Positions 28,575-32,000 are shown, counted from the first letter of the stretch. The stretch is 32,000 nucleotides of DNA from Propionibacterium freudenreichii subsp. freudenreichii (GCF_000940845.1 NZ_CP010341.1:690001-722000); one strand, 5' to 3'. Program-made: numbers and translations. Notes: generated by a model not told the origin, from the letters alone.

Positions 28575-28877
28575 GTCCCGGTTGGTCCTGCTGGTTCGTC
28601 AGGCCTGCGCGGCTTCGCGATTCGGTTCCGGGCCACGCCCCACCCCGTGGGGAGGGGTGCGCGACGGGGCGGCATGCCCTTGCGCAGCCAGCGCCGAGCA
28701 GATCCACCAACCGTGCGATAACCCTCGGATAACGCTGCTTTCCCCCTATTTCCCCTGATAGTCTCCGCACAGGCGAAAGCTAGATTCGTGCTGTCATTCA
28801 CAGCCTTGCCTGTGTGCGAACCAGGTCCTTCGTCGCTGTACCCCGAATCAAGAGCGTGCGCAGGGAAGGCTGGATTG

Positions 28878-30194
28878 ATGAGTGAGGCGAACGGGCGTGT
28901 GTTGGTGTGTCCCAATTGTGGGTCGCCGGTCAGTGACGACGATGTGACGTGCCCCGTCTGCGGGGTCGATCTGCGCGGAGCCGATCTGGGCAGGGCCAAC
29001 CTGCCCAGAGCCGGGAACGACACGGCAGCGGCAGGGGCATCATCGCCGACCCCGACGTCTGACACACAGTCCTCCGGTGCCCCATCGTCCACGACGGACT
29101 CGCCGGATGCCGAGCCGACCATTTCCGTCGCCGCTTCCCCTGACTCCACGACGCCGGTGGGGGACAAGGCGTCCGGCCCGGCAACCTCCCCGGCCGTGAG
29201 TGCCCAGGACTGGAGGGACTACTTCCAGCTGCTCAACGGCCGTGCGCCCACTGAGGCCGAGTTCCAGCGCGCCGTGGCCGATGGTGCCGCTCGACCGCTG
29301 CAGGCAGCCCCGACCTTCACGGAATCCGGTCCCCAGGGGGGTGGACAAGCCTCGCCAGTGCCGCCGCAGCAGGCGACTATGCCCCAGCTGCCGCTGATGG
29401 GCCAGCCATCGGCCGCCCCCGGGCAACAGCAAGCCTTCGGTCAACAACAACCCGTGGGCGCCCAGCAATTCGCCAGCCAGCAACAGTTCTTCGGGCAGCA
29501 GCCCCAGATGGCTGGTCAGCCACTGATGATGACCGCCCCCGTCCAGCCCGCGGCTGACAGCGCCTTCGTGGCGCACAGCAAGGGCTACTGGGCACACCTG
29601 AAGCAGGCATGGCTGCACCCGACGTCCATCGATGCGACCATCAAGGACGGCTATGCCTGGGTCACATATGGCATCATCCTGGCCGCCGTCGTGATCACCC
29701 TGACCTACCAATTCACCAGCGTCGGGAACTTCTTCAAGGCGCTCATCCTGTTTGGCGGAGCGGCGTTGCTGCTCACTGTGGTGGCTGCGGCGTTGACGCG
29801 TGTTGTGCTCAATGTGCGATGCACCTTCACCGACATGCTCAAGCTTGGCACCCAGTCGGTCATTCCACTGATGCCGATCACGATCCTGTTCATGCTCAAT
29901 GACATGCTGCTCAACTCCCGCGTCAGCAGTTTCTATGGTTCCAGCACTGACCTGGAAGACCTGCTGAGTGACTTCTCCTCGGCAGGCTCCTTCTTCGTGG
30001 TCGCGACACTCGTGCTCCTGGGCGCGTCGCTCATCACGGTTCTCGTCTCGGTGATGATCCAGGGAGTCTATTTCTATCGGCTCTCCGCGATCACACCCGG
30101 CTCGAAAGTCGATCGCTACGGCTGGCTGGTGGTGATCAACACGGTGATGGTCATGCTCCTGGGGATCATCATCCTGTTGGCCTGGTTCAACTGA
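28878..30194 (+). CDS. Hypothetical membrane protein: N-terminal zinc ribbon, disordered S/T/P linker, one EW-F-GRxP-EF module, Gln-rich segment, C-terminal 5-TM domain
   Basis: ATG 28878 has GGGAAGG 10 nt upstream; the ORF track GTG 28788 is less likely. The zinc ribbon is CPNCG-x12-CPVCG. The module QDWRDYFQLLNGRAPTEAEFQRAVADGA lies at 29205-29291. The Q-rich stretch spans ~29355-29550. Five hydrophobic helices span 29650-30190. Confidence 0.75.
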   Translation: MSEANGRVLVCPNCGSPVSDDDVTCPVCGVDLRGADLGRANLPRAGNDTAAAGASSPTPTSDTQSSGAPSSTTDSPDAEPTISVAASPDSTTPVGDKASGPATSPAVSAQDWRDYFQLLNGRAPTEAEFQRAVADGAARPLQAAPTFTESGPQGGGQASPVPPQQATMPQLPLMGQPSAAPGQQQAFGQQQPVGAQQFASQQQFFGQQPQMAGQPLMMTAPVQPAADSAFVAHSKGYWAHLKQAWLHPTSIDATIKDGYAWVTYGIILAAVVITLTYQFTSVGNFFKALILFGGAALLLTVVAAALTRVVLNVRCTFTDMLKLGTQSVIPLMPITILFMLNDMLLNSRVSSFYGSSTDLEDLLSDFSSAGSFFVVATLVLLGASLITVLVSVMIQGVYFYRLSAITPGSKVDRYGWLVVINTVMVMLLGIIILLAWFN

Positions 30195-30218
30195 TCTCCC
30201 AGCGGGGAAGGCATTGCG

Positions 30219-31931
30219 ATGTCACAGGATGAATGGCTGAGGCAGTTCACGGCGGTCTACGGACGCCAACCCTCGTCCGAGGAGTTCCTCCGGGCCCGTG
30301 AGGGCGGCTTCGGGTCCCTGGACGCCGATCCCGTCCCTGGGGCAAACCCCGCAGCGCTCGACGGCAGCGCCCAATGGCTCGCCGACTTCCGCGAGCAGTC
30401 GGGCCGCCTGCCGACCACCCAGGAGTTCGCCGCGGCGAAGGCCGCAGGCTTTCCCCGCGGGGCCGGGCAGTCAACACCCCCGACACCGACCACTCCCCGT
30501 TCGGTCGGGTCCGCATTCAATGGGGCCATCCCGACCACCGGGGCCACCCCGGCTCCCACGGCGGGCACCCCGATGGGCGCCTCGTCGTCGTTCCCACCCG
30601 CTCCGCCCATACCCCCGGCACCCGCCATCCCACCCCTGGCCGCCCCGCCGTCCGGCAGCGGCGACAAGCCGCCGCTCTACCGTCGTTGGTGGGCCATCGT
30701 CGCCTATGTGGTGGTGTTGGCGCTCATCGCCGCCGCGGTGTGCTTCGGCATCCCCGGCACCGGAATCCACGGCCTGGTGAACAAGCCCGAAGCCGGCGCC
30801 TCCGGCTCCGCGTCGGGTGCCGCAGGCTCGGCCGCCGGCAGTGACGCCTCGGCGCGGGTTGCCTCGATGCCCGCCTCGGTGCCCTCATGCCCCCGCGGTT
30901 GGACGCCCACCACCTGGGCATCCTGGAACGGCGGGAACTCCCTGGTCTGCAAGGCCGCCGGAAAGTCCACCTTCCATGTGAATGTCACCGCCGGATCACA
31001 GAGCTACTCCACCGATGGGGCCACCACGAGTCCGACCGGCGGCTACGTCGCGAACTTTGATGGCGGTGCCTCGGCGATCGTCGCCTTCGCAGGTTCCCTG
31101 ACTCAGCTGACCGCCTCGGGCGTTTCGACGGTGAATGTCACCAGCCAGGCATGGGACAACGGCTCGAGCTCCGGATTCACCGCGGTGCCCAGTGGCCATG
31201 TCACCGCGTGCCCCAGTGGTTCGTACCCCTTCTCGATGTCCGTGTGGGGCAACCAGTGGCTGTTCACCTGCGGCGCCGACCAGAGCAATGGCACCAGCTT
31301 CGTCTACAGCAACGGCTCCACGAGCGACGCCGGCGGCGGCGTGTTGAACATGTCGGGCAAGTTCTGTGGCGCCACGATGGACGCCTACTCGATCTGCCAG
31401 GGCGCCCAGGTGGTCACGGTGAGCAGTATTGCCCACGCCACCACCACGACCTATCCCACGCAGTCCAGCTACCTTCCGGGCACCGGGGTCACCAACGCCT
31501 ACGGGCCACAGCAGGCCTCCAGCGACACGGATGCGCGCACCACGATGGACGCCGAGATCAAGCAGGACACCCCCTTGGCCGGGGCCTACCTGGTGGGGCA
31601 GTGGACGCCCCAATTGTCGGCCAAGTGGGACGGCGTCTCCTGGCAGGGCAAGACCTGGAGCAACCAGGACATTGCCAACCAATTCCGTGATTTCAAGCAG
31701 AAGTACTCCACGGCCATGATGCTGCGCTCAGCCGACTGGAGCACCCTGGGCTTGTCGGGCCACGACTGGGTCACCATGGTGGCCGGCATCTCATTCACGA
31801 ACGCCGCCGACGCCAACCGCTGGTGCTATGCAAAGGGCTTCGACTCCGACAACTGCTTTGCTGTGCAATTGGGCCATGGGGCCCCCGATCAGACCATGCA
31901 GAAGTGGACGCCGGGACACTTCGGTGACTAG
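30219..31931 (+). CDS. Hypothetical single-pass membrane protein: two cytoplasmic EW-F-GRxP-EF modules, Pro-rich linker, TM helix, ~390-aa Cys/Trp-containing extracytoplasmic domain
   Basis: GGGAAGG Shine-Dalgarno lies 8 nt upstream. Module 1 is DEWLRQFTAVYGRQPSSEEFLRAREGGFG (30219-30314). Module 2 is AQWLADFREQSGRLPTTQEFAAAKAAGFP (30369-30455). The TM helix WWAIVAYVVVLALIAAAVCFGI is at ~30686-30750. No family is recognisable by eye. Confidence 0.75.
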   Translation: MSQDEWLRQFTAVYGRQPSSEEFLRAREGGFGSLDADPVPGANPAALDGSAQWLADFREQSGRLPTTQEFAAAKAAGFPRGAGQSTPPTPTTPRSVGSAFNGAIPTTGATPAPTAGTPMGASSSFPPAPPIPPAPAIPPLAAPPSGSGDKPPLYRRWWAIVAYVVVLALIAAAVCFGIPGTGIHGLVNKPEAGASGSASGAAGSAAGSDASARVASMPASVPSCPRGWTPTTWASWNGGNSLVCKAAGKSTFHVNVTAGSQSYSTDGATTSPTGGYVANFDGGASAIVAFAGSLTQLTASGVSTVNVTSQAWDNGSSSGFTAVPSGHVTACPSGSYPFSMSVWGNQWLFTCGADQSNGTSFVYSNGSTSDAGGGVLNMSGKFCGATMDAYSICQGAQVVTVSSIAHATTTTYPTQSSYLPGTGVTNAYGPQQASSDTDARTTMDAEIKQDTPLAGAYLVGQWTPQLSAKWDGVSWQGKTWSNQDIANQFRDFKQKYSTAMMLRSADWSTLGLSGHDWVTMVAGISFTNAADANRWCYAKGFDSDNCFAVQLGHGAPDQTMQKWTPGHFGD

Positions 31932-31943
31932 GAAGGCAGATCG

Positions 31944-32000
31944 ATGAGGGACGAATGGCTGCGCCAGTTCCGGGCGACCCAGGGCAGGGACCCCTCGCCC
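31944..32000 (+). CDS. Start of a third paralogous gene (truncated by window end)
   Basis: GGAAGG Shine-Dalgarno lies 7 nt upstream of ATG 31944. It encodes MRDEWLRQFRATQGRDPSP. The DNA gaatggctg...cagttc is shared with the start of the previous gene. Confidence 0.6.
   Translation, partial: MRDEWLRQFRATQGRDPSP

Follow-up and report, generated by a model that had tools for sequence, protein, structure and literature searches.

A short predicted helical hairpin recurs in neighboring envelope-protein genes of Propionibacterium freudenreichii and of streptococci

Why should three neighboring genes, encoding membrane proteins of different architectures, share one short peptide? The question is raised by the end of a 32,000-nucleotide stretch of the Propionibacterium freudenreichii subsp. 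freudenreichii genome (NZ_CP010341.1:690001-722000; 68% G+C), hereafter the window, where three co-oriented genes, here called g1, g2, and g3, occupy positions 28878-32000 of the + strand, on which all window features given below are located. A preliminary description of this locus had noticed in these genes four copies of a module with the signature W-x3-F-x4-GRxP[ST]xxEF and had proposed that it serves as a cytoplasmic docking or oligomerization peptide for one partner. Judged from the searches reported here, the module is a conserved unnamed domain family, widespread in Firmicutes and Actinobacteria; it is predicted to be located on the cytoplasmic side of membrane proteins and, at ~30 residues, to be an autonomously folding hairpin of the helix-turn-helix type. 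That it acts as a flexible protein-docking head, coupling the envelope proteins of the operon, is a reading to which we give about an even chance (probability near 0.5).

The repetition itself is not a matter of composition. In a six-frame regular-expression scan of the window, the motif was found only at the sites of the array; the pattern W.{3}[FY].{4}GR.P[ST] occurs four times against 0.01 expected per shuffled window, and GR.P[ST]..EF three times against 0.003. Open reading frames (ORFs) and the scan place the four copies in three consecutive co-oriented genes, at the positions first given; the sites were correct, but the end coordinates were two codons too long in two cases. Copy 1 (VSAQDWRDYFQLLNGRAPTEAEFQRAVADGAARP) is found at 29196-29297 (g1 residues 107-140), with its tryptophan at 29211, and belongs to the subtype that we call A. 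The other copies belong to subtype B: copies 2 and 3, recognized by the regular expression and by a profile hidden Markov model (HMM), lie at 30219-30320 (g2 residues 1-34) and 30360-30461 (g2 residues 48-81), and copy 4 begins g3, which starts at 31944 and is cut by the window end at 32000. The full g3 gene, found at 11726-12943 of contig L001 (CP120880.1, with identical genes), encodes 405 residues and brings a fifth copy (residues 55-83), followed by a transmembrane (TM) helix and an ectodomain differing from that of g2. The three genes contain one, two, and two copies, respectively, and all five fit W-x3-F-x4-G-R-x-P-[ST]-x2-E-[FY]-x2-A. With the HMM built from the four window copies, the g3 copies score 43-47 bits; this HMM includes the first 19 residues of the first g3 copy, whereas the second was fully held out.

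How far does the module extend beyond this strain? A wide profile search, as the preliminary description had advised, was performed by running hmmsearch with the 34-position profile of the four window copies against 1.84 billion representative proteins (clusters at 50% identity), and it retrieved 191 proteins with E-values of 1e-3 or below, 23 of them at 1e-10 or below. A word-indexed homolog search with g2 residues 1-193 was dominated by the proline-rich linker and gave two fragments only, and one with a 45-column module alignment gave 60 candidates, none with an E-value of 10 or below. Near-full modules were recognized in 123 of the best 150 of the 191 proteins, amounting to 179 copies, and individual proteins have from one to four copies, mostly one to three. 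Among 149 nonredundant modules, identity is retained at W6 (147), F10 (148), G15 (130), R16 (147), P18 (147), S/T19 (127, plus nine with N), E22 (146), F/Y23 (126), A26 (125), and G30 (104). The W, F, GR-P, and EF positions are 97-99% conserved in distant homologs and orthologs, and the similarity is not confined to the strain. The members of named origin belong to Lactococcus, Lactovum, Streptococcus, and Alloscardovia, and are labeled either as hypothetical or after another, C-terminal, domain. A scan of a species-representative genome set with a degenerate DNA pattern found at least 120 loci; the matches listed are mostly from Streptococcus (sanguinis, parasanguinis, cristatus, salivarius, mitis, oralis, suis, and others), with further ones in Fructobacillus, Paucilactobacillus, Bifidobacterium, and Alloscardovia. 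These results bear on the most trivial explanation, that the repeats reflect chance, compositional bias, or a recent strain-specific duplication. Gene duplication does explain some of the repeats in the window, g2 and g3 being paralogous, but the excess over shuffled windows, the 191 significant homolog clusters in two phyla, and the retention of the motif in orthologs of 37-49% identity have already refuted this explanation, whose probability is practically nil.

The modules are not all alike. Subtype A, found in hosts with a DUF6574 domain, has the consensus DWLEYFEAVNGRSAT..EIAQALAAGEF, and subtype B, found in TcaA-like, bitopic hosts, has the consensus W..xFE...GRKPT..EF..[AG]K...F. HMMs for the two subtypes, trained solely on streptococcal modules, clearly separate those of P. 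freudenreichii. The g1 module scores 41.2 bits with A and 21.3 with B, and that of its ortholog 34.3 and 16.5; conversely, the g2 copies score 44.0 with B and 22.2 with A (residues 1-34) and 36.2 with B and 10.1 with A (residues 48-81), and the two g3 copies 48.4 against 16.5 and 32.3 against 13.5. All seven modules of the g2/g3 type, orthologs included, favor B by 14-34 bits, and the modules of Fructobacillus and Bifidobacterium fit the same subtype-host assignment. Because streptococcal HMMs sort the modules of g1, of g2 and g3, and of these two genera, the relation between subtype and host transfers between phyla, and this transfer provides the best evidence that the P. freudenreichii array may be the counterpart of a streptococcal gene pair, and that the subtypes are probably functionally distinct.

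This gene pair is frequent. Among the matches listed, neighboring module genes in the same orientation occur at 60 of 118 genome loci, and at 45 of these 60 a DUF6574 gene with one module is followed, always in this order, by a TcaA-like gene with two modules (once four). Pfam confirms the DUF6574 and TcaA-like assignments in S. sanguinis, S. parasanguinis, a Streptococcaceae metagenome-assembled genome (MAG), and Fructobacillus. The pair resembles g1-g2 in that a polytopic protein with one A module precedes a bitopic protein with two B modules. Directly 3' of 45 of the 58 streptococcal TcaA-like genes listed (45 of 51 when loci that end too early are left aside), there is a gene for a VanY/LdcB-type carboxypeptidase (Pfam E-value of 5e-36; for example, L015 6039-6851 and L081 557-1375). 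No conserved neighbors were found at streptococcal loci beyond the pair and the hydrolase, as flanks vary between groups, with what we take, from our own reading of N-terminal sequences, to be rhodanese/YbaK-like genes in some and comFA-comFC-hpf in others.

A peptidoglycan hydrolase gene also lies downstream of the P. freudenreichii array. The preliminary description had left room for the array to continue past the window; it does so through the fifth copy contributed by g3, but ends there, because the next gene, g4 (L001 13011-13850), is devoid of the module. Co-oriented with the others, g4 encodes a protein with a TM helix at its N-terminus and with an Amidase_3 domain (9.2e-8). The intergenic gaps are short (24 nt between g1 and g2, 12 nt between g2 and g3, and at most 67 nt between g3 and g4), and no terminator-like site was predicted between the array genes. 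The g1-g2-g3-amidase order is kept in a second, Propionibacteriaceae-like locus of metagenomic origin (L131; 62% G+C), with identities of 37% for g1, 49% for g2 (h2/P0039), 44% for g3, and 68% for the amidase, so that a membrane-anchored Amidase_3 protein follows the array in both loci. The flanks of L131 are those of the window, with guaB, guaB2, and chorismate mutase genes on one side and cysE/cysK on the other. Its proteins retain modules while their linkers have diverged, and its g2 ortholog has a single module. As judged from sequence and gene order, the window genes are a conserved operon made of polytopic g1, single-pass g2 and g3, and, just outside, the membrane-anchored peptidoglycan amidase g4. 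The array differs from the streptococcal pair by its two bitopic paralogs, by a zinc ribbon on g1, by an Amidase_3 instead of a VanY-type enzyme, and by g2/g3 ectodomains that have no detectable TcaA domains.

On which side of the membrane do the modules lie? TM helices were predicted in 80 of the 88 module proteins of at least 150 residues, and in 76 of these 80 every module precedes the first TM helix. The first module begins at or before residue 8 in 109 of 123 proteins, and the tether to the membrane has a median length of 61 residues. The exceptions have four TM helices between an N- and a C-terminal copy (three Bifidobacteriaceae-type proteins), and the two copies should reside on the same side of the membrane because four helices separate them. 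In P. freudenreichii, PLYRR(W/P)W precedes the single TM helix in both g2 and g3; the g2 helix (30687-30755, from a Kyte-Doolittle scan and flanking charges) has LYRR just before it, which, by the positive-inside rule, places the N-terminus in the cytoplasm. The cytoplasmic placement first proposed fits these observations.

With a module at each terminus, the second at the very end of the chain, the four-TM proteins of Alloscardovia and relatives (P0016, P0024, and P0053; L125 1706-2665) would allow one protein to present two heads on the same membrane face. The family also has a soluble member, a TM-less 192-residue protein of Streptococcus mitis (L084 3776-4354) in which the module is combined with a coiled coil and, at the C-terminus, a pair of zinc ribbons. 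This protein, like the other co-occurrences of module and zinc ribbon, fits a cytoplasmic location, and it might serve the membrane-bound forms as a partner in the cytoplasm or compete with them.

That a discrete module sits on otherwise different membrane proteins was borne out by the hosts. Module proteins contain TcaA_2nd, 3rd_4th, and 5th, NTF2_YvbJ, DUF6574, DUF805, CD20-like, DUF4767, and TM2 domains, and zinc ribbons. The three window genes illustrate this diversity. The g1 gene (28878-30194, ORF) encodes 438 residues, with a zinc ribbon, the A module, a Q/P-rich linker, and a DUF6574-like domain with five to six TM segments in a Kyte-Doolittle hydropathy scan. The zinc ribbon (28905-28973; residues 10-32, CPNCG...CPVCG) has two CxxC knuckles and scores 30.8 bits with PF13248 (threshold 27; 1.9e-7 for Zn_ribbon_3) and 28.5 bits with PF13240 (threshold 25). 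The polytopic domain (29526-30170; residues 217-431) was delineated from a subthreshold Pfam match, hydropathy, and a local HMM of streptococcal DUF6574 proteins, themselves recognized by Pfam at 4e-53 to 7e-73. With this HMM the TM part of g1 scores 39.8 bits, mainly over the pre-TM motif and the first TM helix and anchored on KGYWAHLKQAWLHPTS, and its ortholog h1 10.8 bits only. A KGYW..W....PTS motif before the membrane domain and a Q-rich linker are common to g1 and the streptococcal proteins, which also agree in architecture, A module, and gene position. The Q-rich linker between module and DUF6574 domain (29330-29540; g1 residues ~150-220) is encountered in streptococci (e.g. L015 3274-4311) despite a very different G+C content, and its composition may be under selection.

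The g2 gene (30219-31931, ORF) encodes a 570-residue bitopic protein with the two B modules, a proline-rich linker, one TM helix, and an ectodomain of ~380 residues (30786-31928; residues ~190-570) of no known family; no Pfam or NCBIfam family matched g2, and its ectodomain, 49% identical to the L131 ortholog, has no Pfam match. Outside the module, the proteins had initially been considered unrelated, which is true of the ectodomains, but g2 and g3 share 42% identity over residues 3-188, a segment comprising both modules, the linker, and a nearly identical TM helix, and by this comparison their paralogy takes in all of the cytoplasmic part as well as the TM helix. The g3 linker contains the tandem repeat PSAQPNPSAQPN, and its length is therefore probably polymorphic by repeat slippage; the protein has 399 residues in L004 (11726-12925) instead of the 405 of most strains.

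Both g2 and g3 are predicted to be bitopic like TcaA and YvbJ, with ~150-200 residues before the TM helix and 170-380 after it. TcaA-type proteins have been linked to glycopeptide and serum susceptibility in Staphylococcus aureus. In that species TcaA alters wall teichoic acid abundance, peptidoglycan cross-linking, autolysis, and glycopeptide sensitivity, and is predicted to have one TM helix and an intracellular zinc finger (PMC10328498). The zinc ribbon of TcaA/YvbJ proteins (PF13240/PF13248) is, like the module, a promiscuous cytoplasmic head followed by a linker, one TM helix, and a TcaA-type ectodomain, and the module occupies its place in the TcaA-like proteins of streptococci, Fructobacillus, and Bifidobacterium. 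The folds are unrelated, metal-binding knuckles in one case and a helical hairpin in the other, and the two heads are not simple equivalents, since they occur together in g1, in a 330-residue protein of L081, and in the soluble S. mitis protein. We found no paper mentioning DUF6574 or the module sequences, and in the literature yvbJ is mentioned solely as a neutral integration locus of Bacillus subtilis.

A small cytoplasmic N-terminal head, a linker, one TM helix, and a variable ectodomain are also the architecture of Gram-positive anti-sigma factors, and the gene neighborhood has ties to the cell wall; the module could then hold back a cytoplasmic regulator, such as a sigma factor or a response regulator, until damage to the cell wall is sensed by the ectodomain. 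This seems improbable, because the array has no sigma factor or regulator gene next to it, whether in P. freudenreichii, at the syntenic locus, or in streptococci, because no anti-sigma model of Pfam or NCBIfam rose above noise, and because the module is also carried by polytopic DUF6574, DUF805, and CD20-like proteins, which are unlike anti-sigma factors.

What does the module look like? AlphaFold2, used with an 86-sequence module alignment, predicts for copy 3 (in g2) a helix at positions 2-14, a turn at 15-19 (G-R-x-P-S/T), and a second helix at 20-29, with a mean pLDDT of 91. In this model, helix 1 bears the W and the F, and helix 2 bears E-F-x2-A-x3-G-[F/E]. The G probably terminates helix 1, the P and the S/T (or N) would begin and cap helix 2, with the E at the capping-box position, and W6, F10, F23, and A26 are likely to make up a small core. 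According to general helix-capping rules, the preference for S/T or N favors an N-cap over a phosphorylation site. When g2 residues 1-84 were modeled, the hairpins were confident (pLDDT 82-86), unlike the linker, and a fixed four-helix packing of the tandem modules was discarded (pTM 0.41). Between copies, linker length varies from 2 to 276 residues. Low linker confidence, varied linker lengths, and the long tether to the membrane suggest that the modules are independent beads on flexible strings.

Does such a hairpin belong to a known family? No entry of Pfam-A (2025 copy), NCBIfam (June 2026), or the Protein Data Bank (PDB) covers the module, and no characterized Pfam family was matched. A sequence-profile search of the PDB returned nothing below an E-value of 0.05, and the best Foldseek E-value for the 34-residue module model was 2.2. 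The only recurring Pfam signal was HNH_repeat (PF18780), over profile positions ~9-33 of 54. Against a gathering threshold of 26 bits, full-length g2 scored 12.5 bits, its tandem N-terminus 19.4, and g3 12.8; P0015, with three modules, reached 30.8 bits summed, with no single stretch passing, as is the case for every single module, and hhalign aligned module positions 7-27 with HNH_repeat 9-29 at 89% probability over 21 columns. The likeness is precise, a helix followed by G-R-x-P-[ST] and an x2-E-[FY] helix with identical spacing. HNH_repeat, at 54 residues against ~30, has a second half (yP...FGSWn.Al..aGf) that is missing from the module, whereas the module shows an invariant W four positions ahead of the F and resides in membrane proteins instead of HNH nucleases: no HNH nuclease domain was found among 87 module proteins, the partners being membrane domains. 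Moreover, the HNH_repeat profile also matches DUF4214 and helix-turn-helix (HTH) repeat proteins and, marginally, one Sld2-type protein (17 bits, below threshold), and the module profile likewise drew in DUF4214, HTH, and Sld2-type proteins through the shared F-x4-GR-x-P-[ST]-x2-E hairpin. Membership in HNH_repeat was rejected because half of the model is covered, scores are subthreshold, and the profile cross-matches; given the absent second half, the absent nuclease, and these cross-matches, the likeness is better seen as a shared helix-turn-helix hairpin motif, possibly ancient.

A similar W/h-x3-F-x4-GR-x-P-[ST] hairpin signature is displayed by the Drc1/Sld2-RecQ4 N-terminal motif (PF11719; PDB 2kmu) and by the HTH turn of sigma-70 region 3, three-helix units that bind DNA or protein and belong to soluble proteins of the nucleus or of transcription. 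The resemblance is limited to the hairpin core, and E-values are not significant: RecQ4 (2kmu) aligned at 0.24, and eukaryotic Sld2-like repeat proteins were matched via positions ~5-22 only. Seven proteins of 1100-1950 residues (P0007, P0008, P0009, P0011, P0026, P0027, and P0048) contain five to nine copies of KELNAWKxxFxxxNGRKPTxxDI and, most of them starting with MGQ, MGS, or MGG, are probably eukaryotic. Pfam identifies the repeats of P0007 and P0048 as Drc1-Sld2, with seven stretches per protein; such multirepeat use of the Sld2 N-terminal motif is unusual.

These resemblances, from the HNH_repeat scores and the hhalign match to the weak PDB similarities with sigma-factor HTH turns and the RecQ4/Sld2 N-terminal domain, would suit a nucleic-acid-binding helix-turn-helix akin to HNH_repeat or sigma-70 region 3, its hosts being membrane-tethered regulators or nucleoid anchors. 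We regard this as very improbable, even more so than sequestration of a regulator. The module has two helices only, the second half of the HNH repeat being missing; the cross-matches of the HNH_repeat profile with unrelated GRxPT repeats (DUF4214, Sld2) make the similarity generic; no HNH nuclease or regulator gene was found near the P. freudenreichii array; and the net charge of the modules is acidic (mean -1.2), which argues against binding to DNA, or to the membrane.

The preliminary description had also noted a resemblance to the SHOCT motif (PF09851), another short, helical element that is promiscuous on bacterial membrane proteins and has a G...[ST]..EF...K-like pattern. This likeness did not hold: PF09851 was not reported for any of seven module or tandem sequences at E-values up to 10 (HMMER filters may hide very weak matches), and a SHOCT consensus-like peptide scored 3.9 bits with the module HMM. 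SHOCT is typically C-terminal, unlike the module with its N-terminal first copies, and its G-to-EF spacing is one residue shorter. One module homolog carries SHOCT as a separate domain, and homology between the two was rejected.

The hairpins may then be viewed as protein-protein docking heads on flexible tethers, which would hold the membrane proteins of the operon together, either by A-B or self association or through one shared cytoplasmic partner, and would thereby connect a polytopic protein with ectodomains that are exposed at the surface and involved in cell-wall maintenance. We infer this role from the modularity of the hairpin, its tethering, the co-conserved A and B subtypes in neighboring genes, and the acidic charge. 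A more ambitious proposal, which we hold to be doubtful, is that the A and B hairpins form a heterotypic cytoplasmic docking code assembling a conserved three-part envelope machine, of polytopic DUF6574, bitopic TcaA-like, and membrane-anchored peptidoglycan hydrolase proteins, in Firmicutes and Actinobacteria. Somewhat less probable still is that the module is a passive structural cap, a small, stable, acidic head which fixes the N-terminus in the cytoplasm or shields a disordered tail from proteolysis without any specific partner. The most conserved positions are indeed those expected of a hydrophobic mini-core and of helix capping, the module starts at residues 1-8 in most proteins, many unrelated membrane domains host it, and AlphaFold predicts no packing between modules. 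A cap would, on the other hand, account poorly for copy numbers of one to four, for the internal and C-terminal copies of P0010, P0016, P0024, and P0053, and for the TM-less S. mitis protein, and a generic one has no need of subtypes that follow the host class across phyla.

Several points weigh against docking. The argument is indirect, as it proceeds from modularity, tethering, subtypes, and charge. Fold stability explains nearly all strongly conserved residues, so no conserved binding surface is evident, and self-association is not predicted, since the AlphaFold model lacks confident packing between the two g2 modules. With the Pfam DUF6574 profile (PF20214), g1 reaches 14.3 bits (E = 0.025; profile positions 31-244 of 265), below the gathering threshold of 27.1. 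No TcaA domain was matched in g2 or g3 by Pfam at E-values up to 1 or by a local HMM of streptococcal TcaA ectodomains, and an ectodomain of this type, being undetectable by sequence, was not retained for them. Topology comes from a hydropathy heuristic and the positive-inside rule. The pair and VanY counts lack phylogenetic independence, coming for the most part from streptococci that are close relatives (at least 120 loci in the scan), the Fructobacillus pairs have no hydrolase gene, and adjacent module genes on other hosts are not always A plus B.

Each gene of the array has the ribosome-binding context first described, a Shine-Dalgarno-like GGAAGGC that we located by reading the sequence, at 28864-28870 for g1, 30206-30212 for g2, and 31931-31937 for g3, followed by 7, 6, and 6 nt, respectively, and an ATG; the g3 site overlaps the end of the g2 stop codon by one base. 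Upstream of g1 are guaB, a guaB paralog, and a chorismate mutase gene, then a 300-nt intergenic gap. The g2 protein is identical in several P. freudenreichii genomes (CP120880.1, LT618780.1, and CCYR01000006.1). On the 3' side of the window, a gene of the FGGY sugar-kinase family adjoining araA (L001 15564-17344; same region in L002-L006) is split into segments of 127, 272, and 171 residues in L001 and of 294 and 214 residues in L002 and L004, and is a single gene of 589 residues in L005 and L006, which suggests strain-specific frameshifts or pseudogenization. The search for defense systems with PADLOC gave no meaningful match, the best one (15.7 bits) falling on the low-complexity linker of g3, and no PHROG family was found for module proteins; a defense-system or phage origin of the module genes was therefore rejected.

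A few matches are of a different nature. A contig classified as viral (IMGVR_UViG_3300045988_094566; 42 kb) has at its end two tandem paralogous module genes (L008 58-2368; 363 and 365 residues, no PHROG family), ~1.5 kb from a phage gene (phrog_21909), and this pair probably represents the host flank of a prophage. P0002 (128 residues, from an ENA metagenome) consists of the first 27 residues of g2 followed by an unrelated segment with a PF01367 domain and is most likely an assembly chimera. In Ilumatobacter MAGs, the matches (L022 6660-8000 and L097 2694-4349) were set aside, as they correspond to an internal look-alike, EWTAGFLKREGRNPTPAEFGKAHK, and not to the membrane-protein module; from our own reading of the sequences, we take these proteins to be TrwC/MobF-type relaxases.

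The module thus defines a well-populated domain family (at least 191 clusters at 50% identity) that is apparently missing from Pfam, NCBIfam, and the PDB, and is abundant in oral and gut streptococci, where a single TcaA-like cluster has 1040 member sequences. With the module defined, hundreds of membrane proteins of Gram-positive bacteria could be better annotated and their start codons better called. Through it, two uncharacterized families, DUF6574 and the ectodomain proteins of the TcaA/YvbJ type, are linked in two phyla to each other and to genes for peptidoglycan hydrolases. Concrete experiments on the TcaA-type class become possible, since these proteins have a cytoplasmic handle in common and a candidate partner can be named. 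If true, an A/B docking code would give TcaA-type proteins their first mechanistic partner and a testable principle of assembly.

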